From Acidobacteriota bacterium (lineage in GTDB: Bacteria > Acidobacteriota > Vicinamibacteria > Marinacidobacterales > Marinacidobacteraceae), in assembly GCA_028877265.1 (NCBI GenBank), contig JAPPGX010000191.1:66144-130143 (forward strand): a DNA stretch of 64,000 nt, in the 5' to 3' direction. Position numbers and translations under genes: made by a program. A model generated the notes under the pieces. It saw only the letters and a program-made list of their open reading frames with translations. It made no database searches and was not told the DNA's origin. The first letter of the stretch is position 1. Each line of letters starts with the position of its first letter. This document shows, one piece after another, positions 979 to 15,857 of this stretch.

Positions 979-1419
979 TCAGGCCGCCTGACGGCGGAGC
1001 GCCCACCAGGTGACGATCGTCGAGGTGGCGAGGCTCAGCAGACCGCCGGTCAGGATGTCGATGGGAATGAGCGCCGCCGGCCAGTTGGCGATGGCGGCGA
1101 AGATGGGCACGCTGTAGGTGGCGTAGGCCGCGCAGCCCAGCACGAACGCGTTTTTCATCGCCCGCTGGAGGTTTCGCTCCCGGACTGCCGGTGCGATCGC
1201 CAGCTGGCTGTTCGCGAGCGAGATCAGCGCGAAGAACACCAGGAGGGCGACGATCTCGATGGCGCCCCAAGTGTCCATCGGCTTCCCGAAGCTCCAGTCG
1301 TTCCCGCTCGCCTCATGCAGACGCGCGTGCATCGCCACCGCCGGGGGCGACAGGCTCCAGGCCATGTCGATCACGGTGTAGACGACGAACGCGGAAAGGA
1401 AACGCGCGATCCTGCTCAT
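979..1419 (-). CDS. Hypothetical small integral membrane protein (about 146 aa, 4 predicted TM segments)
   Basis: ORF 979..1446 trimmed to the internal ATG at 1419, which is preceded by AGGAGG with 7-nt spacing. The sequence is hydrophobic (FLSAFVVYTVIDMAW, IVALLVFFALISL, VLGCAAYATYSVPIFAAIANW). It is the last gene of the minus-strand operon that begins with the TonB receptor. Confidence 0.5.
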   Translation of the reverse strand: MSRIARFLSAFVVYTVIDMAWSLSPPAVAMHARLHEASGNDWSFGKPMDTWGAIEIVALLVFFALISLANSQLAIAPAVRERNLQRAMKNAFVLGCAAYATYSVPIFAAIANWPAALIPIDILTGGLLSLATSTIVTWWALRRQAA

Positions 1420-1446
1420 GTCACAACCTCCTGACCCAGGCTGCAC

Positions 1447-3162
1447 TCACCCGCCGCGCTTGATGACCACCCCCGCCAGCGCCCCGATGGACCGGCCGTC
1501 CTCGATCGCGACCTGGCCGTTGACCAGCACCCAGGGCATCCCGACCACCGGACCGTCGGGGTCCATGATGGTCGCGTTGTCCTCCACCCGGTCGTAGTCA
1601 AAGGCGACGACGTCGGCCTTGCAGCCGACCCGCAGGCAGCCGCGGTCCGTCATGCCCACGATGGCGGCCGGCAGACTCGTCGAAGAGCGGACCATGAAGG
1701 GCAGGGTGATGAGCCCGCGGTCCCGCGTGTAGTGGGCGATCTTGCGGGTGTAGCTCCCCCAGAAGCGGGGATGCCGCCCCGGGGTCGCTTCAAGCGCGAT
1801 GCCGGCATCCGTCGAGGTCGCCGTGTAGTCCTGCGCCATGTACATCTCCACATCGAACCGGTCCCCGGCGATCGGCCGGATCAGCACCCCGTGGAGCAGT
1901 TCGTCGTTTCCGGTGCGGGCGAAGTCGATCAGCGTCTCGGCGACGCTCCTGCCGCTGTCCGCCGCCACTGTGGCCACCGTCTTCCCGATCAGCGAGGGAT
2001 CCTCCGGGAAAAGGACGACGATCAGCCGGTCGGCGCCTCCGAACAGGTCGATCTGCTGCTCGAGGTCCATCATCAACTCGGCGCGGATGGCTTCGTCGGC
2101 GAGGTTCGCCTCCAGGTTTGCAAGGCTCAGCAGCCCCGGCGTCCGCCGCCACTTCGGGTCGTCGAGTCCACCGGAACGGTCCGTCCCCGGGGGCGCGAAA
2201 CCCCACACGGGGATCACCCCGACCGGTCCGCCGCCGAAGGTCTCGAAGGGGTACTGATCCAGGAAGACCTGGACCCCCTGCGCCCGCGCGAGGTTGATCG
2301 CCTGCACGTCCTTCGCGGAGTGCCCCCAGCTCGAGGGTCCCTTGGCCTTGATGTGGGTCCCGACGACCCGGATGCCGGTCTCGCGGCCAATCCGGATGGT
2401 CTCGGCCATGCCGTCGGTCCCGGTCAGGGTCGGCCCGTCCACGATGCTCGGCACCTGCCAGCGCGGCATCGGCGACTGGCTGCGCTGGTGCGAGTAGTAG
2501 AACCCGTCGTAGTCCGCGACCACGTGGGCGAGCGCGATGATCTCCTCGGTCTCCGAGAAGCGGGCCGGGCGGTATTCCGGGCCCGCCCCGAGGCCCCAGG
2601 CGCCGTCCTCCATTCCTTCCCGGACCAGCTCGGCCATCCGGGCGACTTCCTCGTCGGTCGCCGGCCGCTCGTGGTCGTCGCCCATCACTTGGAGACGGAC
2701 GGTCGAGTGGCCCACGACGGGCACCACGTTGAGTCCCACTCCTTGGCTCTCGTAGGCGGCGATCTCGTCGCGGATCGGCCAGATCGGGTTCCGGCCGTCA
2801 GCGCCCATCACCACCGTGGTGATCCCCTGGGCGACCAGGTTCAGCGCCTTCCTCTCCTCCATGTCGTCGCCGACGAGCGACCGGTCGGCGTGGGAGTGGA
2901 GGTCCACCCAGCCCGGGGACACATGGAGTCCACTCACGTCGATGGTGCGGGCCGCCTCGTGTCCCTCCTGCCCGGCGAGGCGTCCCACCGCCACGACCTC
3001 GTCGCCCCGAATGCCGACGTCCGCCCGGATGGCGGGGTTGCCGCTCCCGTCGAACACCATTCCTCCGACGAGCAGCAGGTCATAGGCGGGCTGGGCGAAC
3101 CCAGGCGCCGCCAGGAGGCTCGCGACCGCCGCAAACAGCGCACTTCCGAGGACTTTCTTCAT
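1447..3162 (-). CDS. Secreted metal-dependent amidohydrolase, D-aminoacylase (N-acyl-D-amino-acid deacylase) family
   Basis: ATG at 3162 is preceded by GGAGGA. Signal peptide MKKVLGSALFAAVASLLAAPGFAQ. N-terminal DLLLVGGMVFDGSG...HVSPGWVDLHSHAD is the metal-binding HxH motif of the amidohydrolase superfamily. Length and C-terminal beta-sandwich region fit the D-aminoacylase family. Confidence 0.8.
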   Translation of the reverse strand: MKKVLGSALFAAVASLLAAPGFAQPAYDLLLVGGMVFDGSGNPAIRADVGIRGDEVVAVGRLAGQEGHEAARTIDVSGLHVSPGWVDLHSHADRSLVGDDMEERKALNLVAQGITTVVMGADGRNPIWPIRDEIAAYESQGVGLNVVPVVGHSTVRLQVMGDDHERPATDEEVARMAELVREGMEDGAWGLGAGPEYRPARFSETEEIIALAHVVADYDGFYYSHQRSQSPMPRWQVPSIVDGPTLTGTDGMAETIRIGRETGIRVVGTHIKAKGPSSWGHSAKDVQAINLARAQGVQVFLDQYPFETFGGGPVGVIPVWGFAPPGTDRSGGLDDPKWRRTPGLLSLANLEANLADEAIRAELMMDLEQQIDLFGGADRLIVVLFPEDPSLIGKTVATVAADSGRSVAETLIDFARTGNDELLHGVLIRPIAGDRFDVEMYMAQDYTATSTDAGIALEATPGRHPRFWGSYTRKIAHYTRDRGLITLPFMVRSSTSLPAAIVGMTDRGCLRVGCKADVVAFDYDRVEDNATIMDPDGPVVGMPWVLVNGQVAIEDGRSIGALAGVVIKRGG

Positions 3163-3213
3163 GGCATTCCTCCGCTGGGGTGGGCCGGCCATCGTACCGG
3201 AGGGGACAGGCTG

Positions 3214-4581
3214 CTAAGCCCTGGCCCGCCGTGCCCCAACCCCGAGCGCCAACCCGGAAGCCAGGATCAGGGTTATCGCGGCCGGGAATCCGGCCCGGGC
3301 CGCGTTGCCGGCAGGTGCCGCAGGCTCGAAGCGGGGCACCTGGTCCCACTTCACCGCATCGATCGGCGCGGTGGCGAAGAAGTGCGGGAAGAAGTGGTCC
3401 TTGAGGCGTTCGTGGAAGCGGCGCACCGCGTCCTGGTAGTCGAGTTGGGCCGCAAGGTCGGTCCCGGCGAGGCGATCCAGCGCGAGCTGGGTAGCGAGGG
3501 GCGGGGCGAACAGGGACCACCTGCGAGCCCACGCATCCCTCTCGCGCAGCACCTCGCGGTAGGCCCGGGAGGCGTCGCGGGCGGCCTGGTCTCCCCGGTG
3601 ATTCATGGCGTAATACCAGCCCCACGTGAACACGTCCTCGGGAACGGCTTGGCCGCTCCACTCGGGGTAGTCCCGGTAGAACGACTCCATCGTCGCGCTG
3701 GGCGGCAGGTCCCAGGCCTCGTGGTATCCCTGGCGCTGCTGCACCGTCAGCTCCAGCGCTTCCGGAACGGGGTGAAGAACCGCGTTGGCGAGACTCAGGG
3801 CCGCCGGAGCCAGGATCGTGAGGACGACCCAGGTGCCCGCGAGGATCATGGCGTTGGCGGTCGATGACCGGTTTCCCATCGCGACTCCGAGGCAGAGGGC
3901 GAACCAGAAGATCGTGTGCAGCGCGACGAGCGCGAACATCCAGCCGGCCCGGCCGTCGAGGTCGATGCCGGCCATCAGCGCCCCGGCGGCCATCACCACC
4001 GCGGCGACCGCGCCGACGAGAATCGCGCGGGATGCGAGCTTCGCGGCCAGGAGCCTCCGGCGGGGTGCGAACAGGCGGACCAGGTTCCAGGTGCCGCCCT
4101 CCCGTTCGCCCGAGATCAGGTCGTAGCTGACCGCGATGATGAAGAGCGGCAGCAGCGCGATGAGGAGGAATGCAAGGTCCAGATAGCCGGCGGCGGCAAG
4201 CCGCGGGTTCACGGTCTCGTGCTCGTAGAGCTGCCCTTCGAGGGCCAGGAGACGGATCCGGAGGCTCTCCGTTTCCACCGCGGCCCGGCCCCGTGCCAGG
4301 GCGGAAACCGGCAGCGGGGGCTGCGGGGCGGGAAAGGCCACGTAGTAGAGCACCTCTCCCGCGTCGGTGGTCGGCGGATAGACCGAGAGGAGAAAGTCCA
4401 ACTGGTCGTCGTAGGCGGTCTCGGCCGCCGCCAACGAAGACCGGGCGACTTCCGCGTTCCGCCCGGCGCGCCACGCGCCGTAGATTCCCAGGACGAGCAG
4501 AAGGATGATCGCGGCCGCGGTCCCGGCCGACCGGGTCAGCCGCCGGAGGTCGAGCGCCAGCAGCCGCGCCCAGGCTCTCAC
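3214..4581 (-). CDS. ABC-2-type transporter permease-like membrane protein (DUF3526-like), second of a tandem pair
   Basis: GTG start at 4581 overlaps the upstream TGA (GTGA). It has an N-terminal TM helix, a large predicted periplasmic region, then a polytopic domain with the ABC-2 signature ISGEREGGTWNLV. It is paralogous to the upstream gene. Confidence 0.6.
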   Translation of the reverse strand: MRAWARLLALDLRRLTRSAGTAAAIILLLVLGIYGAWRAGRNAEVARSSLAAAETAYDDQLDFLLSVYPPTTDAGEVLYYVAFPAPQPPLPVSALARGRAAVETESLRIRLLALEGQLYEHETVNPRLAAAGYLDLAFLLIALLPLFIIAVSYDLISGEREGGTWNLVRLFAPRRRLLAAKLASRAILVGAVAAVVMAAGALMAGIDLDGRAGWMFALVALHTIFWFALCLGVAMGNRSSTANAMILAGTWVVLTILAPAALSLANAVLHPVPEALELTVQQRQGYHEAWDLPPSATMESFYRDYPEWSGQAVPEDVFTWGWYYAMNHRGDQAARDASRAYREVLRERDAWARRWSLFAPPLATQLALDRLAGTDLAAQLDYQDAVRRFHERLKDHFFPHFFATAPIDAVKWDQVPRFEPAAPAGNAARAGFPAAITLILASGLALGVGARRARA

Positions 4582-6040
4582 GACGACCTCTCCGTTCCGA
4601 TCAGCGCCAGCCGTCTCCGCGCCAACCCGAGTCCGGTCAGCGGCAGGCCGATCCACAACCCGAGCGCGGCCAGGGAGACGGGACGGTCCGCCAGCGCTCC
4701 ACCGAGCGGCGGCGGCTCGGTCGCGAAGACGGGGAACTGCCCCCAGTGTTCGCGCGACAGCCGTTGCGCCCGGTCGTTCTCGTTCTGGATCTCGCGGATG
4801 TGGAGTTCGTTGAGACGCTGAATGATCGTGTAACGGTGCGCCTCGGCCTGGGCGAGGAACGCTTCCATCGCCTCCGGGCCGCTACCGGCGATGCCCATCG
4901 ACAGGTCCCGGGCCGCCAGGTACGGGGAGAGGAATCCCGACCATGCCATGACCCCGTTCTGGCGAAGATGACCCTTCACCAACTCCTGCCGGTGGTCCTC
5001 GAAGACCCGGCTGGTGAGTGCTTCCGATTCCCGGCTGAGCACCCCCCTCCAGTTCACCGGGAGGTCCTCGACGGCGCCGACCTGGTAGCGCTCCAGGTAC
5101 TCCTCCCGGAGCGCGTTGAAGAAGGGATCGTCCGGGCGGTGGCTATCCCCGACCTCGTTCAGCGCCTGCTCCACCTGAGCAGTGAGCTCGGCGCGCGAGG
5201 GAAGCGGATAGAGCGCTCCGGCGACGGAGGCCGCTACGCGGGGGGTGGCGACGCAGATCACCACCCACAGCGCGAGCAGTTGCGCGAGCGCGCTCCGCGA
5301 AGAGGTTCGGACGGCGGAAACGAGCACCGTGACGAGCACCCAGCCCGCGAGATAGATCCCGTAGATGCCGGCCAGGACGCCCAGCCGCGTGACGGAAGCG
5401 GGGCTGTCGAGCCCCGGCCCGGCCATGACGCCGACGGCCAGCGCGACCGGAAGCGTCGCCAGCGCCCCTACCGCTCCCGTGGCGAGAACCTTGCCCGCGA
5501 GGATCTGCGCCGGCGTCGCCCCCTGTGTCAGGAGGACGCCGAGCGTTCCCCCCTCTCGCTCGGCGCTGACCGCGGCGAAACCGGCGACAACCACCAGGAG
5601 CGGCAACAGGAGCGCGAGCACGCTCGCCGGGGTGAGGCGTCCGAAGCGCGTCATCCCGGTGGAATGACGCGCCTCGCCAAAGTTGGCCGTGTTCTGGCGA
5701 TGGCCTTCCAGGTAGATCGAGGTTCCCGCGTAATCGCTCACTCCGGGATCGACGAACTCGAGCGGCGCCTGTTCGCGAAAGACCAGGAACCCGTAGTGGA
5801 TGACCCGGTGCGGATGGCGTTCGGGCTGTTCCACCCACTGCCGATCGACCATCGCCTGGTAGCGGTCGCGCTGTTCGGTCGCGCCCGTGGCGTGATGCCG
5901 GGCGCCCACCACCGCGACCAGACCCAGGGCGATCACGAGCCCCAACAGGAACAGGACGGTGCCGTCCTGGCGAATCGCGCCCAACTGCCGTCGGGCGATG
6001 AGCAGGGTGTTGCGGAGGCCTTCCGGCGAGTTGCGCATCG
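4578..6040 (-). CDS. ABC-2-type transporter permease-like membrane protein (DUF3526-like), first of a tandem pair
   Basis: ATG at 6038 is preceded by AGAGAGG. It has an N-terminal TM helix and the ABC-2 motif VSAEREGGTLGVL within a multi-TM C-terminal half. No ABC ATPase gene is adjacent. Confidence 0.6.
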
Positions 6041-6248
6041 GTCCTCTCTTTCGGTCTGACGAGGGGGGAGCCGTGGTGTTGGTTACCGCCAGCCAAGTGG
6101 CGCGGAGTATTGCTCGCGCGGCCGCAGGGACAAAGGCGGTAGCGTCGTCCAACGGCCAGGCTCGCGCCGCCGGCCTGGAACGCCGGGTTCCCGAGCTACG
6201 AGGAATGGAGGCCGGCTGGCGCCGTCTCCCATCCCTCGTGCTCAAGGG

Positions 6249-6275
6249 GTCTCCGCAGAGCTATCGCTCTGCTTC
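6249..6275 (-). other. Stem-loop (GCAGAGC-TATC-GCTCTGC) in the 172-bp spacer between the TonB receptor and permease genes; possible attenuator or partial terminator
   Basis: A 7-bp perfect inverted repeat with a 4-nt loop lies immediately downstream of the receptor stop codon. There is no U-tract. Confidence 0.3.
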
Positions 6276-6417
6276 GGAAACAGCCGGCACAGCGACGCGC
6301 TGGTAGAGAACGATCCCGCAGATCGACACCGCGCCGCGCACTGCGCGGTCGCGCAGCACGCGGCTGGTCAGAAGTCGGCGTTCCAGGCGCTCCGTCACCG
6401 TCCGGCGTCGGCGAGCC

Positions 6418-8862
6418 CTAGTGGAACCGCAGCGCGTAGCTCAGCCGGAACCCGCGACCCATCTCGGGGGCCCGGTCCTTGATGTACGACGTGTGGTTGC
6501 GATAGAGCTCGTTCGTCAGGTTGTAGCCCGAGAACGACAGGATGTGGGACAGGTGCTGCCGCGGCCAGACGTACGAGCCGCGCACGTTGACGACGGCATA
6601 GCCGTCGGTTTCGGTCTCGCCGCGGAACCCGTCGGTCTGCCGTCCCGCAAACTCCACCTGCGGGCTCAGCGTGAACCCGCCGTAGAGGATGTCGAGTTTC
6701 ACCGAGCCTCGGAGCGGCGGAATCCGCGGCAGCGCTTCATCGTTCGCTGTCAGCCGCGCGTCCACGTAGCCGATCCCGAGGGTCAACCAGGTCCGTCCGA
6801 CGAGCCGGGCGCCGGCCTCGGCGTCGAATCCGGCGAAGCGGCTGTCGCCCTGCAGGATGTCGAACACCGGCAGGTTGTCGATGACCGCATCCCTGCGGCT
6901 GCCGAAGATGAAGTTGTCGATCTCGTACGTGAAGAAGTTCAGGTCGCCACGGGTGCGGACCCCCCGGTGCCGCAGGCTCACGTCCAGTCCGATGGTGGAC
7001 TCGGCGTCGAGGTCCGGGTTGCCGATGTCGAACGAGAACGTGCCGGCGTGGGCGCCGAAGTTGTACAGCTCCTCGATGGCCGGGGCGCGGTGGGAGCGCG
7101 TCAGGTTGGCCACCAGCGCGTTTCCGGCGCCGAGATCCGCGTGGACTCCGACCGACGCCGACAGACCCGCGAAGCTGCGGTCGCGCACGTCGGGCGCCTC
7201 GGGCCGAGGCTCTTCCTCCTCGTGCCCGTGCTCCTCGTGTCCATGCTCCTCGTGCCCATGTTCCTCGTGCCCGTGCTCCTCTTCGTGCCCGTGCTCCTCT
7301 TCGTGCCCGGCTCCACTGCTCCGCGCCGCCACGGCGTAGTCATCGCGGTCGATCCGGGCGCCGAACTGCACTCGAAACCGCCCGAAGGTCAGTTCTTCGT
7401 AGGCGAAGGCCGCGAAGGAGCTCAGGTCGGTCCGCGGCGCCAGCGCCTCGGCTCCGGCCGCCTCGAAGTCCCGCACCTGCGCCCAGGCGCCGAATCTCCC
7501 CGACAGACGCTCCGTCTGCCGCTGGTCCACGTCGGCCCGGAAGATGTAGACCTGGTTGTCGTAGCGCGTGCCCACGCGCTCCTGCCCGGCCTCGGTCTCC
7601 AGCTCGTCATGTCCCCAGTCCACGACGCTCAGGCTGAGCCGTCCTCCCTCGATGACGCTGTTGTCGAGGTCCCTCACCCCGAAGTCGAAGCGCCCGGCGC
7701 GACGCTGCCAGTCGAGTTCGATATCGGTCGTGCCATGCATTTCCTCCTCGTGCTCGCCTTCGTGCTCGTCATGATGTTCGTCTTCGTGTCCGCCGTGCTC
7801 GTCTCCGTGGTCATCGTGGTGCACGTGGAACTCGCCGACGATCGGAACTCCATAGCGGCCGTCGTTCACCGTCACGCCGGCGCTGGTGAAGAACCGTTCG
7901 CCGGTCCAGCCGAGCCCGGCCTGCGCATGGGTCGCCTCGGTCGCGGAATTCTCGACGACCCCCGCGGGCGTGTCGTAGTCCTCCGTCCGCCGCGTGCTGC
8001 CGGAGGCCCAGTAGTGGACTCCGTTCTGCTGTGCGTGCTGCACGCTGACGTTCCCGCCCGCCTGCGCGTTCGGACTCCCCACGTCGGCGCTCAACTGCGC
8101 CCGCGTGCCTTCCGTCGGCGACGCCCGGTAGCTCTCCTGGGGCGTGATCACGTTGACGAGCCCGCCGACCGCGTTGGAGCCGTATAGCAATGTCGCCGGC
8201 CCGCGGACGATCTCGACGCGTTCCACGCCGTTGGGGTCGATGGCGACGCCATGGTCGCCGGACTCGCTCGACAGGTCTCCGGTGCGGACGCCGTCCTCCA
8301 GGATCATGACCCGGTCGCCGTCGAAGCCGCGGATGATCGGCCGGTTCGCTCCGGGACCGAAGCCGCGCACCGCAATGCCGGGCTCGTTCCGCAGGGCGTC
8401 GGCGAGATTCGTGGCCGACTCCTTGGCGATATCGAACGAGTCCATGGTGGTGACCGCGTTGAATGCCTCGAGCGCGGTCTCGGTGCCGTCCACCGAGGCG
8501 GTCACTGTCACGTCCTCGCGAACGGGTGAGAGACTGAGTTCGAAGTCCACCGTCGCCGTCCCGCCCGGAAGGACGGTGACCGTCTGCCGTCCCGCGGTGA
8601 GGAGCTCGCGTTGCGCGAGGACGTCGTAGGAGCCGGCCGGCACGCCGGCGATCGCGAACCTTCCCTGTCCGTCGGTCAACGCGAATTTGCCCGTGCCCAC
8701 GAAGAGGACGACCGCGCCGTGAACGGGGCCGTACTCCTCAAGAGTCACGGTGCCGCGAACCGCGCCGGTCTCCTGCGCCGCCACCGGCGCAGTCCCGAAG
8801 GCCGCCAGCAGGCCGGCTGCCAGGAAACAAGTCAGAAAAGAAGTGAATTTGGATCGGTACAT
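6418..8862 (-). CDS. TonB-dependent outer membrane receptor with N-terminal carboxypeptidase-regulatory-like domain and two His/Glu-rich low-complexity insertions
   Basis: ATG at 8862 is preceded by GGGAGGA. It has a signal peptide, a CarbopepD-like segment (GAVRGTVT...GQGRFAIAGVPAGSYDV), a plug domain (NLADALRNEPGIAVRGFGPG...PIIRGFDGDRVMILEDGVR...GPATLLYGSNAVGGLVNVIT), and a C-terminal barrel ending in aromatic F/H. The His-rich tracts are HVHHDDHGDEHGGHEDEHHDEHEGEHEEEMHG and GHEEEHGHEEEHGHEEHGHEEHGHEEHGHEEEE. Confidence 0.85.
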   Translation of the reverse strand: MYRSKFTSFLTCFLAAGLLAAFGTAPVAAQETGAVRGTVTLEEYGPVHGAVVLFVGTGKFALTDGQGRFAIAGVPAGSYDVLAQRELLTAGRQTVTVLPGGTATVDFELSLSPVREDVTVTASVDGTETALEAFNAVTTMDSFDIAKESATNLADALRNEPGIAVRGFGPGANRPIIRGFDGDRVMILEDGVRTGDLSSESGDHGVAIDPNGVERVEIVRGPATLLYGSNAVGGLVNVITPQESYRASPTEGTRAQLSADVGSPNAQAGGNVSVQHAQQNGVHYWASGSTRRTEDYDTPAGVVENSATEATHAQAGLGWTGERFFTSAGVTVNDGRYGVPIVGEFHVHHDDHGDEHGGHEDEHHDEHEGEHEEEMHGTTDIELDWQRRAGRFDFGVRDLDNSVIEGGRLSLSVVDWGHDELETEAGQERVGTRYDNQVYIFRADVDQRQTERLSGRFGAWAQVRDFEAAGAEALAPRTDLSSFAAFAYEELTFGRFRVQFGARIDRDDYAVAARSSGAGHEEEHGHEEEHGHEEHGHEEHGHEEHGHEEEEPRPEAPDVRDRSFAGLSASVGVHADLGAGNALVANLTRSHRAPAIEELYNFGAHAGTFSFDIGNPDLDAESTIGLDVSLRHRGVRTRGDLNFFTYEIDNFIFGSRRDAVIDNLPVFDILQGDSRFAGFDAEAGARLVGRTWLTLGIGYVDARLTANDEALPRIPPLRGSVKLDILYGGFTLSPQVEFAGRQTDGFRGETETDGYAVVNVRGSYVWPRQHLSHILSFSGYNLTNELYRNHTSYIKDRAPEMGRGFRLSYALRFH
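7199..7320 (-). repeat. Tandem in-frame 15-bp (and 18-bp) nucleotide repeats encoding (H-E-E-H-G)n inside the TonB receptor gene
   Basis: The plus strand reads ctcgtgcccgtgctc ctcgtgtccatgctc ctcgtgcccatgttc ctcgtgcccgtgctc ctcttcgtgcccgtgctc ctcttcgtgcccggc. Units are multiples of 3 bp and code for a His/Glu-rich loop. Confidence 0.8.
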
Positions 8863-9067
8863 GGTTTGTCCTCCCGATTGCCTGCCCTCGGCAAGACGGT
8901 TCCGGCAGATGCCGTGCGTACCGCGGCGAACCTCGTTCTGAGGGCGTCCCGAACGGGGTCGGGGAACGCGGTGGCCGCGGGGGGACGCGCCCGGTCAGGC
9001 GACCGCTGGCGCGCGCCGGCCCGACGCCCGCCGCTTGGCGGCGGACGAGCACGGCGTGTTCTCGGAA

Positions 9068-9370
9068 CTACGCGGGAGGAGCGCGGGCGGGCTGGCGAAG
9101 GTAGAGCCGGGATCGGACCCGGACGACCTCGCGCGCTCGTTCAGGCGGATCCGCAGCATCGGCGAAGCCGATCTGCAACGAGCCGGAGAGCTCGGTGGCG
9201 GGCTGGTGTGGAGTCTGGCAGACCGCGCAGTGCTCATCGACGGAGTGCTCTTCGTGACAGAAGACCTCCGCCGCGGCGGCACCGGCCACCACCAACACCA
9301 GGAGAGCGATCCAGGCGCTCCAGCCAAGGCTGCGCCGGGCGAGCCTCGGGTGCGCGGTTCCTCGTCGCAT
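9068..9370 (-). CDS. Small N-terminally membrane-anchored Cys/His-rich protein (about 100 aa), putative metal-binding accessory protein of the downstream TonB receptor
   Basis: The sequence is MRRGTAHPRLARRSLGWSAWIALLVLVVAGAAAAEVFCHEEHSVDEHCAVCQTPHQP. A TM/signal helix is followed by C-H-x2-H...H-C-x2-C. It is reminiscent of DUF2946-type proteins found next to metal TonB-dependent receptors. There is no clear RBS. Confidence 0.35.
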   Translation of the reverse strand: MRRGTAHPRLARRSLGWSAWIALLVLVVAGAAAAEVFCHEEHSVDEHCAVCQTPHQPATELSGSLQIGFADAADPPERAREVVRVRSRLYLRQPARAPPA

Positions 9371-9572
9371 TGCTGTCGAATCGAACGGGCCAGTATACGG
9401 GCGACGAGTGTTTGCCGTAAGCCTCGTTTCGCCTCCGTCCCTGGATCATCGGTCTTCCACGTCCGGCCAAGACGCCACGCAGAACGCCTCGCAAAGGCGC
9501 AATTCGGCCGGGATCCATCTCCCGTCGGGCGCCGCCTGGGTTCTTGCCACGGGCTGCTAACGTCCACTCAAC

Positions 9573-12500
9573 ATGCTGGACCGACTCTCCGCCTGTCTCA
9601 CATTGCATCTGGTTTCCGGGTTTCTGGTGATTCCCTCGGGAGCGGCAATCGCGCAGCCCGTCCCGGTGGACTCCTCGCAGCTTGGCGGTCTCCAGTGGCG
9701 CACCATCGGGCCCGACGGGAACCGGCTGAGCGCCGCCGCTGGCGAGTGGGGCAACCCCGATGTCATCTACTTCGGCGCCGCGTCCGGGGGGATCTGGAAG
9801 ACCAGCGACCGGGGCGTCGCCTGGGAGCCGGTCTTCGACGACCAGGAGGCGGCTTCGATCAGCGCGCTCGCCGTTTCACCGTCCCATCCCGGCCAGGTGT
9901 GGGCCGGGACCGGCGAGACCTTCATCATCCGGCCGGCGCTCGCGATGGGGAACGGCATCTACCGTTCCACCGACGGCGGGCGGTCCTTCCATCACCGGGG
10001 CCTCGAGGCAACCGGGCGCATCGCCCGCATCCTGGTCCATCCCGAGGACCCGGACCTCGTCTACGCCTGCGCCCTGGGCCACTCCTATGCGCCGCAGCCG
10101 GAGCGCGGGGTCTATCGGACGCGGGACGGAGGCGCGAACTGGGACCTGGTGCTCCATGTGGACGAAGACACCGGTTGTTCCGACCTGGCGATGGACCTCC
10201 GCCATCCCGAGCGGCTGCTGGCCGGGATGTGGCAGCTCCAGATCGACACCGGCGGGCTCCGGAGCGGGGGGCCGGGCAGCGGGCTCTACCGCTCGCGCGA
10301 CGGGGGCGACTCCTGGGAACGAATTTCGGGCGCGAAGTCCGATTCCGCCGGAGGCCGGGGCCTGCCCGGCGGCGAAGACCATCCCATCGGCAAGGTCGCC
10401 GTGGGGATCGCCCCGAGCGACCCCGACCGCTGGTACGCCCTGATCGAGGACGAGAGTCCGGGCTTCTACCGCTCCGACGACGGCGGCGATTCCTGGCGCC
10501 TCATGATGACCCACCACGATCTCGCCGAACGGGCGCCCTACTACGTCCGGATCGCCGTGGATTCCGCGGACGCCAACCGCGTCTATTTCGCCTCGGTGCT
10601 CTTCAGTACCACCGTGGACGGCGGCCGCACGTTGATCGAGACCTCCTACCGCGCCGGCGGCGACAACCACGACGTCTGGGTGGATCCCTGGATGCCGGAG
10701 CGCATCCTGGTCGGGCACGACGGGGGCGGCAGCATCTCCGAGAACCGCGGCGCGAGCTGGCGCCGGGTCGTACCGCCGGTGGCCCAGATGTACCACGTCA
10801 CCGTGGACGACCGGATCCCCTACCGCGTCTACGGGAACCGCCAGGACGGCTACTCCTACCGGGGCCCCAGCCGGACCCCCGGCGGCGGAATCCCGCTCGG
10901 ACTCTGGGAGGGGGTCGGGGGCTGCGAGAGCGGCTGGGCTACCCCCGAACCCCACGACGACAACGTGGTCTGGTCGGGGTGTTACGACGGCGGGCTCGAG
11001 ATCTACGACGACCGCACGGGACACGTCCGTGACATCCGGGTCTGGCCGGAGGCGGGCTACGGCTGGGCGCCCGCGGACCTGAAGGTGCGCTGGCACTGGA
11101 ACTTCCCGATGGTCCTGTCGCGCCACGAACCGGGGACCACCTGGGTCGGCAGCCAGTTCGTGCACAAGAGCACGAACCGGGGCCAGTCGTGGGAGACCAT
11201 CAGCCCCGACCTGACCACGAACGACAAGTCGCGCCAGCAGGACTCCGGCGGCATCACCGTCGACAACCTCTACACCTTCGACGGCTCGGTGCTCTTCGCG
11301 CTCGCCGAGTCACCGGTCCAGGCGGGCCAGCTCTGGGCCGGAAGCGTGGACGGGAAGGTCCACGTCACCACCGACGGCGGGGAGACCTGGCTCGACCGCA
11401 GCGGGAACGTGCCGGAGCTCGACCAGGACGCCTGGATCAAGTTCATCGAGCCCTCGCACCACGATCCGGAGACCGCCTACCTGGCGGTGAGCTGGCACCA
11501 GTCGGGCGACTTCCGGCCGCACGTCTACCGCACCCGGAATCTCGGGGAGAGCTGGGAGCGCATCAGCGGCGGAATCCCCGAGTCCCCGTTCTCGTTCGTC
11601 CACGTGGTGCGGGAGGACCCGGGCCGCGCCGGCATCCTCTTCGCCGGCACCGACAACAAGGTCTGGGCCAGCCTCGACGACGGCGAATCCTGGTTCTCCC
11701 TCCAGCTCGACATGCCGCCGGCGCCCATCTACGGGATGGTCATCCAGGAACGCTTCCAGGACCTGGTGGTCGCGACCTACGGCCGCGGCTTCTACATCCT
11801 GGACGGTATCGGTCCGCTTCGGGATCTCGCCGAGGCGTCGAACGATCCGCTCCGGGTCTTCGATTCGCCGACCGCGTGGCGGTTCCTGCCGCGGCAGAGC
11901 ATCAAGTCGGAGCCGGGCAGCCTGGTGACCGGCCGGAACGCTCCCTATGGCGCTCCCATCTCCTGGTGGCTCGACGAGGATGCAGCTTCCGATCGGGCCG
12001 AAATCGCGATCGTGAACGCCGCAGGGGAGACCGTGCGAACGCTTCGCGGTCCCGGAGCCGCCGGGCTTTCACGGGTGTACTGGGACCTCCGCGGTGATAC
12101 CCCCGACCGGGCCACCCTCCGGACCCGGCCTCCCGACCGGGACTGGGTGGAAATGGGCGAGGACGGGCAGCGCCGGATCCGCACGTGGGACCTCGACATC
12201 TTCCCCGGTTACCGCGGTCTGCTTCAGCCACCCGGGTCCTACACTGCGCGGGTCACGGTGGGGGAGCACGCCGCGGAGACCACCCTGCGGGTGGAGGTCG
12301 ATCCCGCATCCGCCGCCACCCCCGACGACATCGGGGAGAAGTACGCGTTCCTGAACGCCATCCACGACCAGTTGAACGAACTGGCGGAGATGGTGGACGA
12401 GCTGGAGTGGGTGCGCCGCGAGATCGAGGGGCTCCGGGAGCGCCACGCCGGCGACGAGCGGTTCACCGCGCTGCTCGAAAGTGCGGGTGAGATCGCCGGC

Positions 12501-12791
12501 ACCGCGATCGCCATCGAGGGAAGGTTCTTCGACGTGGGGCTCACCGGAGCCCGCGAGGACGCTTTCCGGGCGCCGATGCGGCTCTACGGCCGCCTTGGCG
12601 CGCTCGCGAACGACGCCGGCTGGGACGGCGCCGACTTCGCGCCCACCGACCAGCAGCGCGAAGTCCACCGGGTTCTCACGGAGCGGTTCGAAACGGCCCG
12701 CGGGGAATACCGCCGGTTGATGGACGAACAGCTTCCGCCATTCTGGCGGGCGCTCGCCGAGGCGCGCGCAGGAGACGGCGGTCCGGATTAA
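9573..12791 (+). CDS. Secreted BNR/Asp-box repeat protein, sortilin/VPS10-like (Ycf48-like beta-propeller) family, about 1070 aa
   Basis: Multiple Asp-box motifs (S/T-x-D-x-G-x-S/T-W): RSTDGGRSF, RTRDGGANW, RSRDGGDSW, RSDDGGDSW, TTDGGETW, STNRGQSW, RTRNLGESW, SLDDGESW. It has an N-terminal signal-like segment. Confidence 0.8.
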   Translation: MLDRLSACLTLHLVSGFLVIPSGAAIAQPVPVDSSQLGGLQWRTIGPDGNRLSAAAGEWGNPDVIYFGAASGGIWKTSDRGVAWEPVFDDQEAASISALAVSPSHPGQVWAGTGETFIIRPALAMGNGIYRSTDGGRSFHHRGLEATGRIARILVHPEDPDLVYACALGHSYAPQPERGVYRTRDGGANWDLVLHVDEDTGCSDLAMDLRHPERLLAGMWQLQIDTGGLRSGGPGSGLYRSRDGGDSWERISGAKSDSAGGRGLPGGEDHPIGKVAVGIAPSDPDRWYALIEDESPGFYRSDDGGDSWRLMMTHHDLAERAPYYVRIAVDSADANRVYFASVLFSTTVDGGRTLIETSYRAGGDNHDVWVDPWMPERILVGHDGGGSISENRGASWRRVVPPVAQMYHVTVDDRIPYRVYGNRQDGYSYRGPSRTPGGGIPLGLWEGVGGCESGWATPEPHDDNVVWSGCYDGGLEIYDDRTGHVRDIRVWPEAGYGWAPADLKVRWHWNFPMVLSRHEPGTTWVGSQFVHKSTNRGQSWETISPDLTTNDKSRQQDSGGITVDNLYTFDGSVLFALAESPVQAGQLWAGSVDGKVHVTTDGGETWLDRSGNVPELDQDAWIKFIEPSHHDPETAYLAVSWHQSGDFRPHVYRTRNLGESWERISGGIPESPFSFVHVVREDPGRAGILFAGTDNKVWASLDDGESWFSLQLDMPPAPIYGMVIQERFQDLVVATYGRGFYILDGIGPLRDLAEASNDPLRVFDSPTAWRFLPRQSIKSEPGSLVTGRNAPYGAPISWWLDEDAASDRAEIAIVNAAGETVRTLRGPGAAGLSRVYWDLRGDTPDRATLRTRPPDRDWVEMGEDGQRRIRTWDLDIFPGYRGLLQPPGSYTARVTVGEHAAETTLRVEVDPASAATPDDIGEKYAFLNAIHDQLNELAEMVDELEWVRREIEGLRERHAGDERFTALLESAGEIAGTAIAIEGRFFDVGLTGAREDAFRAPMRLYGRLGALANDAGWDGADFAPTDQQREVHRVLTERFETARGEYRRLMDEQLPPFWRALAEARAGDGGPD

Positions 12792-14518
12792 TGAGCGAAG
12801 AGCGCTCCCGTTTCGGATCCCGGAATCTCCTGGCGGGGGTCGCGCTGGCTGCCTACGGCTGGTTCGCCGCCGCCTACGGGCCCGACGGCTCGTTCCCCGG
12901 ATCGGACTTCGGTTCGCTCGCCTACGGACTCTCCCGGCAGGGCCTCTGGTTTCTTCCCATCGGGATCCTCATCCCGCTGGTGCTGCCCCGGATGCGAGGC
13001 GTCCTCACCGGTTTCTTCCTGGTTCTGTTTCCGTCGCTGTTGATCGGAGCCGTAATGACCGCGCTCGTGGTCGCGGCTCCGGACGCCGCTCCCTGGTTGG
13101 TGCTGGAGAGCTTCGACTTTCCGGAAGTGGCAACGCTGCTCGCGCCGTTGACCGGAATGTTCGTCGGCGCGCTGTTCGGCGCCGTCATCGCGCGGGGGCC
13201 CGGCTCGGCGCTGGTCCTCATTCCGGTGCTGGTCGCCATCGCCGCGGTCCTCCTCGCGAGCGTCGCCGTGCTGCTCCTGCTGATCACCGACCGGGTTGCG
13301 GTGACGGATCCCATCGGGCCTCCCGGGTCTCCGGACGGCCAGTACCGCGACGCCTTCGCCGACTTCTATCGGGACGGAGCGCCCGGCTCGCAGGCGGCGC
13401 TGAACGCGGCCACCTTCGCCGCCGGCTTTCGCCTGGCGCTTGCCGCCGTGGGCGTGGACCCGGGCGTGCGGCTCCACGCGGCCCCGGCCGGCGATGCGAT
13501 GGAAATCGCCGGCTCGATGCCGATTGCCCTTCCCGCGTTCGGCGGGCGTTTCCTGAACATCGCGGCGACCGCGGCGCCGACCGTCGAGGACGGCGAGTTC
13601 CGGGCCGCGTTCCGGTCCGTCCGGGTTGGAGGCATCGAGGCGCCGGCCGTGCTCGTCCGGTCCTCGTCCCGGATCCTCTCACGCTGGCTGCGCGGGAACA
13701 CTGCGGTGGCGGCGCTGCTGGCGCCCTTCGATGAGGTCCGGGTTGCGGACTCGACGATCGTGGTGCGCTGGCGGGAGAGGGAGGACACGGGTGCGGGAGT
13801 CCATTCGCGGGTGGGCGGTTACCTGACGCTGCTCGTCCGGGACGCCGATCTTCTCCGGGAGCAACCGGACCGGACCTCCGCGGTGCTCAGGCGCACGTTC
13901 GCGCTCGCCGCCGTCCGTTCGGTGGGGGGCGACCCGCTGGCCGAGAACCGGGCCGCCCTGCTCGCCCTCGGGGGGGCGTTCGGACATCCCTCGCTGCTCG
14001 ACCTGGCGCGCGTGCCCGGTGGAGGGGAGGAAGCGCGAGGACTCCTGGACCGCCTGCCGCTCAGTCTGCACGGGCGTCGCGACTGGGCGCGCCATTTCTT
14101 CCTGAGCGCCGGCATGGTGCAGGTGGCGCCCGACGGCGTTTCGGGCGGGGCCGGGCTCTTGAAGGAACAACTCGACGCCGCGGAGGGCGGGACCGGGTTT
14201 TCCTTTGCCGACCTGTTGATGGACGAGGCGGGGACCCGCTTCGGGCTCACCGCGACCGGCGATGTGGCGCGGGCGCGCTGGATGCAGGTGCGGCTCGCCA
14301 ACGGCGTCCGGGAAGACGACCTCGCGCCGACCGATGCCGGGTTGCCCGAAGGGCTCAGCGCCGCGCGGCTGGAAGCCGAATTCGGCGGGGTGGGGGGCGA
14401 GGGCTTCCGGGACGTCGAGGCGGAGATCGTGCGCCTGGTGGACGCCCTGCCGCTCTACCGGATGCAGATTCCGGGGGCGCCGGCCGGCATCGCTCCTCCT
14501 TCGGGTACCCTGCCTTAG
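12791..14518 (+). CDS. Hypothetical membrane protein (N-terminal polytopic domain plus about 380-aa soluble domain), translationally coupled to the BNR protein gene
   Basis: Its ATG overlaps the upstream TAA (TAATG). The N-terminal 200 aa are strongly hydrophobic with about 5 helices. It has coding-like GC3 and no recognisable family. Confidence 0.6.
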   Translation: MSEERSRFGSRNLLAGVALAAYGWFAAAYGPDGSFPGSDFGSLAYGLSRQGLWFLPIGILIPLVLPRMRGVLTGFFLVLFPSLLIGAVMTALVVAAPDAAPWLVLESFDFPEVATLLAPLTGMFVGALFGAVIARGPGSALVLIPVLVAIAAVLLASVAVLLLLITDRVAVTDPIGPPGSPDGQYRDAFADFYRDGAPGSQAALNAATFAAGFRLALAAVGVDPGVRLHAAPAGDAMEIAGSMPIALPAFGGRFLNIAATAAPTVEDGEFRAAFRSVRVGGIEAPAVLVRSSSRILSRWLRGNTAVAALLAPFDEVRVADSTIVVRWREREDTGAGVHSRVGGYLTLLVRDADLLREQPDRTSAVLRRTFALAAVRSVGGDPLAENRAALLALGGAFGHPSLLDLARVPGGGEEARGLLDRLPLSLHGRRDWARHFFLSAGMVQVAPDGVSGGAGLLKEQLDAAEGGTGFSFADLLMDEAGTRFGLTATGDVARARWMQVRLANGVREDDLAPTDAGLPEGLSAARLEAEFGGVGGEGFRDVEAEIVRLVDALPLYRMQIPGAPAGIAPPSGTLP

Positions 14519-14701
14519 CAGCCTGTGGACAAAGTCACGCGGCATTCGAACGCCGATGCATCCCGCCTGAACCGCGCCTCTACGAGGCGCTCTGCGTTGC
14601 GTTTCGGTCGGAATACACTCGGTATTCCTCCCTCACGCGCCTGGTCAGCCGGGCGCCTCGGCGTTCTCGGTACTCACGTCACTTCATCCACAGGCTGCTA
14701 A
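14515..14701. repeat. MITE-like non-coding element: about 187 bp bounded by 25-bp terminal inverted repeats (15 bp perfect, 22/25 overall)
   Basis: TTAGCAGCCTGTGGA (14515-14529) is the reverse complement of TCCACAGGCTGCTAA (14687-14701). The flanks extend the match (CAAAGTCACG vs TGAAGTGACG). The interior carries hairpins GCGCCTC-TAC-GAGGCGC and GGAATAC-ACTCG-GTATTCC. Confidence 0.45.
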
Positions 14702-14753: not shown

Positions 14754-15857
14754 ATGGCCGACACGGCCTCGCTGCTCGACAGTTGGGAGAGCGAGGTCCA
14801 GGCGGCCTGGCTCTACCTGGTGCTCGCGGAGATCGAGACCGGAGAGAACAAGCGCCTCTTCGAAGCGCTCTCGGCGGACGCGCTGGAACAGAGCAAGTCG
14901 TGGGTCAAGGCGATCGAGGACGCGGGTGGTTCGCCTCCCGGCCCCTACGAGGCGCCCTTCCGGGTGCGGCTCGTGGGCACGCTGATCCGGCGGATCGGCC
15001 CGCGCTCGCTGCTGCCCGCGCTCGCCGCGCTGAAGGTGCGCGGCCTCTCCGTCTACCGGGCGGCGCCGTCGAGCCTCGAGGTGCTCATCGCGCAGGAGGC
15101 CGGTTCGAGCGTCCGCGCGGAGTCCCGCGATCACCTGCTGGGCGAAGAGCAGCGCCACCTCTACACCCGCGGGGCGGTCGCGCTTCACGCCGCGATCTTC
15201 GGGGCGAACGACGGGCTGGTGTCGAACACGGCCCTCATCCTGGCCGCGACGGGCGCCGGCGCCTCTCCGGGCACGGCGCTCCTCATCGGCGCCGCCGGAA
15301 TGGTGGCGGGCGCCGTTTCGATGGCCACCGGGGAGTACCTCGGGGTGCGCTCGCGGATCGAACTCTACGAGCGGCAGATCGCGCTCGAGGAGGAGGAGTT
15401 GCGGCTCTACCCGGACGACGAGGCCGAGGAGCTGGCGATGATCTTCGAGGCGCGTGGTCTCGAGCGCGAGGCCGCCCGCGATCTCGGCAAGCGCCTGATC
15501 AGCGAGCCCGCCCGCGCGCTCGATGTGCTGACGCGCGAGGAACTCGGCCTGAATCCGGACGATCTGGGTTCGCCCTGGGCATCGGCGCTGGCCTCGCTGC
15601 TGAGCTTCGGCGGCGGAGCGCTGGTCCCGCTGCTTCCCCTCGCGCTCCTCCCGGCGCTCGGTCTGGGCAGCGGCCCCGCACTGCTCGGAGCGGTGGCCCT
15701 GAGCGGGGTGGCGCTTTTCGTGTCGGGGGCGGCGACGAGCCTGTTCACGGGCCGTTCCGGCATTCGCAGCGGCTTTCGACTGGCCTCCGTGGGGCTTGCG
15801 CTCTCGGGTGTCCTTTACGGTCTCGGGCTCGTCGTCGGGGCGAGCCTCGGCGGCTGA
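14754..15857 (+). CDS. mbfA: Membrane-bound ferritin-like iron exporter: N-terminal erythrin (rubrerythrin/ferritin-like) domain fused to a VIT1/CCC1 family transporter (MbfA-like)
   Basis: The N-terminal ferritin-like helices carry E-x-x-H-type pairs (EIETGENKRLFEALSADALEQSKSW ... EEQRHL). The VIT1 signature AIFGANDGLVSNTALILAATGAG is followed by Gly-rich TM helices. The RBS is GGGAG. Confidence 0.8.
   Translation: MADTASLLDSWESEVQAAWLYLVLAEIETGENKRLFEALSADALEQSKSWVKAIEDAGGSPPGPYEAPFRVRLVGTLIRRIGPRSLLPALAALKVRGLSVYRAAPSSLEVLIAQEAGSSVRAESRDHLLGEEQRHLYTRGAVALHAAIFGANDGLVSNTALILAATGAGASPGTALLIGAAGMVAGAVSMATGEYLGVRSRIELYERQIALEEEELRLYPDDEAEELAMIFEARGLEREAARDLGKRLISEPARALDVLTREELGLNPDDLGSPWASALASLLSFGGGALVPLLPLALLPALGLGSGPALLGAVALSGVALFVSGAATSLFTGRSGIRSGFRLASVGLALSGVLYGLGLVVGASLGG

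Follow-up and report, generated by a model that had tools for sequence, protein, structure and literature searches.

Small exported leader peptides of the DUF2946/CruR family carry an export signal, a CxxC motif and a C-terminal RAPP arrest motif (Roy et al., mBio 2022, PMC9426467). The two motifs lie ~45 residues (± 1–2) apart, and the gene stands first in its operon, followed by a long intergenic region and often by the gene of a TonB-dependent receptor (PMC9426467). Upstream open reading frames (uORFs) with RAPP or RGPP motifs precede TonB receptors in various Gram-negative phyla, and in vitro CruR has been shown to cause arrest (PMC12992588). In Caulobacter crescentus, the Zur-regulated znuK/znuGHI genes encode a TonB receptor together with an ATPase of the ABC-2 type (ABC, ATP-binding cassette) and two permeases (Mazzon et al., BMC Genomics 2014, PMC4176598). 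Here we describe a cluster of six genes, all on the minus strand and spanning positions 979–9370, in a 64,000-nt stretch of the Acidobacteriota contig JAPPGX010000191.1 (the window; G+C ~69%). In order of transcription, the genes encode a CruR-like leader peptide, a TonB-dependent receptor, two DUF3526 permeases (pA and pB), a D-aminoacylase-family amidohydrolase and a small DUF2177 membrane protein (Table 1). An earlier sequence-only reading had placed all six and proposed their families; Pfam, NCBIfam and the sequences themselves recover every one of them, and the theme of metal acquisition is likewise supported. The locus is a mosaic of three separable units: leader plus receptor, permease pair, and amidohydrolase plus DUF2177. 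On balance we favour, with moderate confidence, a mosaic metal-acquisition locus in which a CruR-type leader and receptor stand beside a separated permease pair that would be served by an ATPase encoded in trans, with the amidohydrolase and DUF2177 genes as neighbours.

The mosaic is apparent from close relatives. The nearest matches to the window proteins come from Gemmatimonadota metagenome-assembled genomes (MAGs) of the Candidatus Palauibacter/Longimicrobiales group, whose sample and organism names suggest an association with sponges. The window's own sublineage consists of five loci (the window, L004, L014, L096 and L099) with pA proteins 81–95% identical to window pA, and their flanks were examined over 10 kb where the contig allows. 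These loci do not bear out the single self-contained operon that had been proposed. In blastn comparison, window positions 9649–6150, which hold the leader and receptor, find no counterpart in L096 (pA 95% identical); ~110 nt stand in their place, and 140 nt separate the BNR gene from pA. Because L004, L014 and L099 all have the leader-receptor unit, its loss from L096 would be the parsimonious explanation. Receptor and pA are set apart by a hypervariable stretch of 379 nt (window), 245 nt (L004), 279 nt (L099) or 1.5 kb (L014, where an opposite-strand MerC gene splits the receptor from the permeases). The ~110 nt directly upstream of pA (6039–6149) are conserved in L096, L004 and L014 whatever gene precedes them, which argues that the permease pair has a promoter and 5′ region of its own.

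An assembly chimera joining receptor and permeases was considered and rejected, as the same adjacency occurs in L004 and in the long-read contig L099. In an ENA metagenome the window sequence is broken into two contigs of the same sample, scaffold_1041 and scaffold_9949, whose ends share 55 nt (window positions 6176–6230). This break, which prompted the idea of a chimera, lies ~30 nt from the edge of the segment that L096 lacks, a hint that strains with the leader-receptor unit and strains devoid of it coexist in the sample. The MerC-family (mercury/heavy-metal transporter) gene, absent from the window, is found on the opposite strand at L004:4716–5174, L014:7898–8317 and L015:356–775, and its position varies from upstream of the leader in L004 to between receptor and permeases in L014.

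The permease pair has no ATPase beside it. DUF3526 pairs normally accompany an ABC ATPase, as the sequence-only reading assumed, and this is borne out by ~90 related loci with a pair and enough flank, all of which have one; among these and the sublineage loci, only the window's own sublineage is without it. Its absence, originally noted for 9 kb, extends to the whole 64 kb: there is no ABC signature motif, Walker A is matched once, in a reading frame unused by ENA gene calls, and tblastn of the 64 kb with three cognate ATPases returned no match, with the permeases and receptor recovered. Nor is there an ATPase within ~10 kb of the pair in any of the five sublineage loci. Related loci indicate how such a pair could operate. 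In 16 Longimicrobiales/Palauibacter loci (two of them through protein look-ups) the order is (cruR)-ATPase-pA1-pB1-pA2-pB2, so that one ATPase is encoded with four permeases. The loci L006 and L007 also have one ATPase and two pairs, with a second leader and receptor inserted before pA2-pB2, and in L086 and L092, from MAGs labelled Vicinamibacterales and Acidobacteriota, a single ATPase is likewise found together with two permease pairs and with a receptor. Window pA is 73% identical to the third permease of L006 and pB is 76% identical to the fourth, versus 30–37% for the first pair, and on these identities we assign pA/pB as orthologues of the second pair (pA2/pB2) of the related Longimicrobiales loci. 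By the same comparison, pairs of the pA2/pB2 type often appear to have no ATPase of their own and to sit beside that of another module. We infer that the orphan pair is powered in trans by a shared ATPase encoded outside the 64 kb, plausibly in a stand-alone cruR-ATPase-pA1-pB1 operon of the kind found in L027 and L034.

The arrangement of ATPase, permeases and receptor differs between lineages. Vicinamibacterales loci have the order [leader-receptor]-[leader-ATPase-pA1-pB1], Flammeovirgaceae ATPase-receptor-pA-pB, Spirosoma receptor-pA-pB-ATPase and Eleftheria DUF2946-receptor-ATPase-pA-pB, and in Brevundimonas the receptor is divergent from ATPase-pA-pB. Related to these comparisons is the observation that ATPase, pA1 and pB1 are 73–88% identical between MAGs labelled Acidobacteriota (L045–L061, Vicinamibacterales; L036–L044, Holophagales/Thermoanaerobaculia) and MAGs labelled Gemmatimonadota, with L006 and the window as reference; between the same groups the His-rich receptor is 67–72% identical and the leader peptide nearly the same. 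This points to modules that may have moved between phyla, perhaps among sponge symbionts, with mis-binning as the alternative.

Like the Caulobacter znuK/znuGHI system, the window locus combines a TonB receptor with an ABC-2 permease pair and has no periplasmic binding protein. Unlike it, the window has no ATPase in cis and no Zur-box-like site, and a CruR-type leader takes the place of Zur. The comparison with Caulobacter, suggested by the sequence-only reading, proves apt, in that a Brevundimonas locus (L097) shares the znuK/znuGHI layout and its DUF3526 permeases are 41% identical to window pA; by analogy, Caulobacter ZnuH and ZnuI would be DUF3526 proteins as well. At the start of the Brevundimonas ATPase gene (L097:7199–7211), the sequence GTTATAGTGTAAC differs at a single position from GTTATnnnATAAC, the core of the Caulobacter Zur box, which fits with control of DUF3526 systems by Zur in Caulobacterales.

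DUF3526 pairs always consist of two subtypes, pA and pB, and the two paralogous permeases are indeed coupled through a GTGA overlap as first read. The pA subtype conserves the motifs HPH, HYG, LEGHRQN and GDSH, which pB does not have. Across 68 pA sequences (alignment A4) the conserved residues H75, H77, H81, E111, H113, D298, H300 and D304 are predicted to be periplasmic; in pB, H287, D291, D331, H390 and E391 are conserved (alignment A7). The AlphaFold model of pA (mean predicted local distance difference test score, pLDDT, 89.6) contains six transmembrane helices and, given the usual N-in topology, the loop after the first helix and the DUF3526 domain between the fifth and sixth face the periplasm. 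Its best fold match in the PDB (Foldseek) is NosY in the NosDFY complex (7O0Y_D; E = 5.3e-5, TM-score normalized to the target 0.73). The pair thus resembles NosFY of NosDFY(L) (7O0Y, 7ZNQ) in ABC2_membrane_2 superfamily, membrane-core fold and link to metal handling, and differs in sequence (13–15% identity) and in that NosY is a ~270-aa homodimer without a DUF3526 domain. Both permease genes are intact in the window, L004, L014 and L096 and are full-length gene calls in L099, and ratios of nonsynonymous to synonymous substitution (dN/dS) against the window are 0.16–0.29 for pA and 0.12–0.21 for pB. Since the frames are intact, the ratios low and the family-wide conserved residues kept, the pair is under purifying selection and decay is unlikely.

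At the head of the cluster, the leader gene parallels B. pertussis CruR (Bp2923, DUF2946)-BfrG (PMC9426467), in which a small exported first protein is likewise followed by a long spacer (162 nt in cruR-bfrG, 205 nt in the window) and a TonB receptor. As read from its sequence, the leader has an Arg-rich N-terminus and a hydrophobic export segment (~W17–A34, WSAWIALLVLVVAGAAAA), followed by the Cys/His block CHEEHSVDEHCAVCQTPH with the CxxC motif C48-A-V-C51 and, at the end, R96-A97-P98-P99, A100 and the stop codon. Alignment A1, of the window leader with small ORFs from five related loci, shows no variation at C48, C51 and R96-A97-P98-P99, and the distance from CxxC to RAPP is 44 residues in the window and 42–46 in related leaders. 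In a six-frame scan of the 64 kb, the leader is the only ORF that fits the CxxC/RAPP pattern; it is the first gene of its unit, is divergent from the BNR gene and is separated from the receptor by the 205-nt spacer. More than 50 leaders of this kind occur in the fetched loci, all with an invariant RAPP motif. The same kind heads the ATPase operon in 49 of 80 ATPase-anchored loci (L016–L095), a set retrieved with the ATPase of a related Gemmatimonadales locus, taking one genome per species, and sorted by tblastn and a regular expression for the leader. A sibling leader, L006:1659–1982, scores 24.2 bits for DUF2946, above the gathering threshold, and the annotated DUF2946 protein of Eleftheria (28.9 bits) has CxxC, 47 residues and RGPP. 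We class the window leader as a divergent member of the CruR/DUF2946 arrest-peptide leaders because all CruR traits are present, its own Pfam score is sub-threshold and that of a sibling lies above the threshold. Unlike B. pertussis CruR, it is divergent in sequence and below the Pfam threshold, belongs to another phylum, has no PepSY gene after it, carries a His-rich sensor block (Cys3/His4) and ends one residue after RAPP instead of three. As RAPP/RGPP uORFs preceding TonB receptors were known before, it is a new member of the group and not a new kind. The sequence-only reading had recognized the gene as encoding a small Cys/His protein and overlooked its regulatory nature as an arrest peptide of the CruR type.

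The 205-nt spacer between leader and receptor is 94% identical in nucleotide sequence to that of L004, and the leader proteins are only 80% identical; this better conservation suggests that the spacer itself is constrained. It contains hairpin-forming sequence that is conserved in the window, L004 and L014 (fold z = −2.1). The receptor that follows has Pfam matches to the plug (PF07715, 3.5e-25), the barrel (PF00593, 8.4e-29) and CarboxypepD_reg, and its sequence DVTVTAS is assigned as the TonB box. Two His/Glu-rich stretches, HVHHDDHGDEHGGHEDEHHDEHEGEH and HEEEHGHEEEHGHEEHGHEEHGHEEHGH, are putative surface loops, and orthologues in Gemmatimonadota and Vicinamibacterales (67–89% identity) bear variable His-rich HDDH/HEEH repeats. 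ZnuD is the best match both in NCBIfam (NF038289, 224 bits against a cutoff of 950) and in the PDB (4RDR, E = 2.9e-32; OprC, 3e-12), and we regard the receptor, by these scores, as ZnuD-like and not as a ZnuD orthologue. Like Neisseria meningitidis ZnuD (4RDR), to which the plug and first barrel strands match, it has His-rich segments, presumably at the surface; it departs from ZnuD in its additional CarboxypepD_reg domain at the N-terminus and in HEEH/HDDH repeats that are far longer. The L006 receptor upstream of pA2-pB2 is of a different type, has no His-rich segments and is ~30% identical over the plug only. Since two unrelated receptor types thus occupy the same place, a receptor upstream of pA2-pB2 seems favoured, not obligatory.

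The spacer between receptor and pA had been given as 172 bp with a hairpin. Its hairpins stand, the window-specific part (6140–6397) folding strongly (z = −4.9) and differing in L004, L099 and L014; its length does not, since pA starts at ATG 6038, the start annotated by ENA for the identical contig and shared by nearly all homologues of ≥83% identity, which leaves 379 nt. A start at TTG 6245 was rejected on the same grounds. The spacer matches no Rfam family beyond chance level and, as its structured part is not conserved in relatives, was rejected as a conserved RNA element or riboswitch; it has no second copy within the window and was also rejected as a repeat or mobile element. A scan for sigma-70 promoters found no promoter-like site, and the terminator scan returned one site at chance level, inside pA (5969–5952).

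Table 1 Features of the cluster in the window.
Feature	Position	Strand	Description
CruR-like (divergent DUF2946) leader/arrest-peptide ORF	9068..9370	-	100 aa; CxxC and RAPP motifs; Pfam sub-threshold
Leader-to-receptor intergenic region, candidate attenuation region	8863..9067	-	205 nt; conserved, hairpin-forming
TonB-dependent receptor	6418..8862	-	814 aa; predicted signal peptide, CarboxypepD_reg, TonB-box-like DVTVTAS, plug, barrel
Receptor-permease spacer	6039..6417	-	379 nt; 6140-6397 window-specific and structured; 6039-6149 conserved region upstream of the pair
Permease pA, DUF3526/ABC2_membrane_2	4578..6038	-	486 aa; Pfam, ENA gene call
Permease pB, DUF3526/ABC2_membrane_2	3214..4581	-	455 aa; GTG start overlaps pA stop (GTGA)
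D-aminoacylase-family amidohydrolase	1447..3162	-	571 aa; predicted signal peptide; lineage-specific neighbour
DUF2177 small membrane protein	979..1419	-	146 aa from ATG 1419; Pfam E = 3.4e-12; AGGAGG ribosome-binding site
Leader, receptor and flanks, present or absent among close relatives	6150..9649	.	~3.5 kb; blastn against L096

Downstream of pB, the secreted D-aminoacylase-family amidohydrolase is upheld in its family assignment: its best PDB match is 1M7J (E = 7.5e-53), and its N-terminus is signal-like. Like the Alcaligenes faecalis D-aminoacylase (1M7J) and N-acyl-D-glutamate deacylase (3GIP), it shows full-length homology (E ~1e-52); unlike both, it has a predicted signal peptide, a ~80-aa insertion and Asp in place of Cys96. 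The metal ligands of 1M7J, which we take to be HxH, Cys96, His220 and His250 with Asp366 as the catalytic residue, align accordingly, with HxH, two His and the catalytic Asp retained and Asp at the position of Cys96. Carbohydrate de-N-acetylases score almost as well as D-aminoacylases. The enzyme is strongly conserved (dN/dS 0.05–0.11). The 571-aa protein starting at ATG 3162 matches an ENA gene call exactly, and a 581-aa version is not on record; with this start, the gap to pB, earlier given as 21 bp, is probably 51 nt. The small membrane protein 27 nt further downstream, with its AGGAGG, is confirmed and belongs to DUF2177.

Other features surround the cluster. A ~99-nt stretch occurs twice with 74% identity, at 9462–9560 (−) and 14515–14612 (+), oriented alike with respect to the gene that follows. 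The first copy lies upstream of the leader-receptor unit, and the second begins at the stop codon of a 575-aa ORF, ~140 nt before the gene of a VIT1-family metal transporter (14754–15857); both are within segments that L096 lacks. Possible explanations are a short repeat, the scar of an insertion and a regulatory region common to both places. The divergent gene (9573–12791, +) encodes a 1072-aa protein with BNR/Sortilin-Vps10 repeats, and related BNR genes flank ATPase-permease clusters in L016, L017, L019 and L023. On the other side, a convergent gene (1–920, +) is cut by the start of the window; in full (L008:5311–6291) it encodes a 326-aa protein like sigma-54 enhancer-binding proteins, with an AAA lid and a Fis-type helix-turn-helix only and a faint match to the ATPase core. 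The protein thus resembles an activator that has been truncated, with the receiver domain and the bulk of the AAA+ module missing.

On the model of CruR in Bordetella, ribosomes would stall at the RAPP motif of the leader when metal is scarce, so that transcription could continue through the 205-nt spacer and the receptor would be made. Binding of metal by the Cys/His block of the nascent leader would relieve the stall and switch receptor expression off. The His-rich segments of the receptor would capture the ion and TonB energy would move it into the periplasm, where a pA/pB heterodimer could bind it through the periplasmic His cluster and pass it inward, driven by a shared ATPase dimer. The pair itself would be the second pair of a cruR-ATPase-pA1-pB1-pA2-pB2 system, split from the ATPase module in this sublineage. 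The analysis establishes what the genes are, the motifs of the leader, the lack of an ATPase in cis, orthology with the second pair, purifying selection and modularity; the trans ATPase, the inward direction of transport, the metal and the arrest mechanism are inferred. As for the metal, we estimate about an even chance for zinc, because of the ZnuD-like receptor and the Caulobacter precedent; copper, for which the CruR precedent and the relationship to NosY speak, follows as a substantial second possibility, and any other metal is a minor one.

Several results weigh against this reading. The match of the window leader to Pfam DUF2946 (PF11162; E = 0.0034) reaches 18.6 bits, short of the gathering threshold of 23.7, and the 205-nt spacer is not markedly C-rich (C/G 1.15), which leaves a Rho-dependent mechanism unproven. 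L096 keeps the permease pair without a receptor, and coupling of the two is therefore not obligatory. When the match lists for permeases and ATPases were compared, no contig bearing a sublineage pair had an ATPase match, and for the 3.44-Mb L096 contig (ERZ24894577:ctg522388c) no ATPase is found among the cluster members listed (15 of up to 86 per cluster). No Caulobacter-type Zur box (GTTATNNNATAAC, at most two mismatches) occurs near the cluster, a result to be read with the caution that the phylum's own Zur box may differ. Inward transport is also an assumption, as the ABC-2/NosY-type modules studied are exporters or mechanotransducers and are not known to be importers.

The sequence-only reading had instead taken the genes as one co-transcribed operon, in which a metal-metallophore complex is imported through the receptor and permeases and the metallophore is hydrolysed by the periplasmic amidohydrolase, freeing the metal. 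The genes do share a strand, with short gaps from pA onward (the GTGA overlap, 51 nt and 27 nt) and no terminator-like site predicted between them; the order pA-pB-amidohydrolase is kept in the window, L004, L014, L096 and L099, and the enzyme has a predicted signal peptide and an almost intact active site. Outside this sublineage, the amidohydrolase does not stand beside DUF3526 genes, being absent from all 80 ATPase-anchored loci and from plasmid loci. Even within it the association is loose. In L096 an AbiEii toxin-antitoxin pair separates pB from the amidohydrolase and an AAA_14 gene separates the amidohydrolase from DUF2177; the DUF2177 gene is absent after the amidohydrolase in L004 and L014, and a PP2C gene takes its place in L099. 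The receptor unit, missing in L096 and cut off from the permeases by MerC in L014, is no more firmly tied, and its His-rich loops suggest that what they bind is the ion as such and not a chelate. Because the amidohydrolase and DUF2177 accompany the permeases only in the sublineage, with insertions or replacements in relatives, the metallophore-hydrolysis idea is weak: gene order is conserved, yet this does not require co-transcription of the amidohydrolase, and no wider association backs a metallophore role. The enzyme looks like a bystander of the metal system, and we consider the operon with metallophore hydrolysis quite unlikely.

A serious rival to import is a role in the periplasm, in which the DUF3526 pair, like NosFY, would act as a mechanotransducer that uses ATP to shift metal between periplasmic partners, for instance by stripping it from the receptor or by loading metalloenzymes such as the amidohydrolase. 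In the Nos system copper is handed over within the periplasm by the mechanotransducer NosFY and is not transported across the membrane, which is why we take a non-import role seriously. The best structural match of pA, the conserved His/Asp clusters in periplasmic regions of both permeases and the lack of a periplasmic binding protein encoded nearby all fit such a role; the likeness to NosY is, however, a structural analogy at the low identity given above, and no NosD- or NosL-like partner is found among Pfam calls for neighbouring genes, beyond which no search aimed at such partners was made. Caulobacter, with the same layout, has moreover been proposed to use ZnuGHI for high-affinity uptake (PMC4176598), and on this balance we judge the mechanotransducer unlikely. 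A bolder version, which we hold to be unlikely, would make DUF3526 pairs in general NosY-like periplasmic metal handlers, several per ATPase and with the ATPase possibly encoded elsewhere; the Cys3/His4 CruR-type leader would then sense zinc and not copper, and the orphan pair could draw metal from the His-rich receptor to load periplasmic metalloenzymes, the amidohydrolase among them. Metal efflux or detoxification, with an ABC-2 exporter pair and an outer-membrane channel, would accord with the fold, which is typical of exporters, and with the MerC genes beside the cluster in L004 and L014. It is very unlikely given that TonB-dependent receptors, with their plug and TonB box, serve import, that CruR-type control turns genes off at high metal (PMC9426467) and that the Caulobacter counterpart is induced by zinc starvation (PMC4176598). 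That the pair is a decaying, non-functional remnant left by loss of its ATPase would explain why all five sublineage loci have none in cis; the intact frames, low dN/dS and retained family-wide motifs make this extremely improbable. We therefore retain the mosaic metal-acquisition locus with a separated pair and an ATPase in trans as the preferred reading.

DUF3526 transporters are encoded next to metal receptors in five phyla or more, and the main zinc-uptake system of Caulobacter is probably one of them; no paper in the library searched mentions these transporters. The parts of the present locus are already known in kind, as a CruR-type uORF, a ZnuD-like receptor, a ZnuGHI-like ABC-2 system and a D-aminoacylase. 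What is new is that CruR-type leaders head both receptor operons and ATPase-permease (DUF3526) operons in Gemmatimonadota and Acidobacteriota, that one ATPase is routinely encoded with two permease pairs, that an orphan pair is kept by selection without an ATPase nearby, and that a NosY-like fold is combined with a conserved periplasmic His cluster in DUF3526 permeases. For annotation, the locus cautions against taking every "incomplete ABC transporter" to be broken, or all genes side by side on one strand to be functional partners. Together, the four new points provide testable hypotheses for how metals may pass through the periplasm and across the inner membrane when no binding protein takes part.

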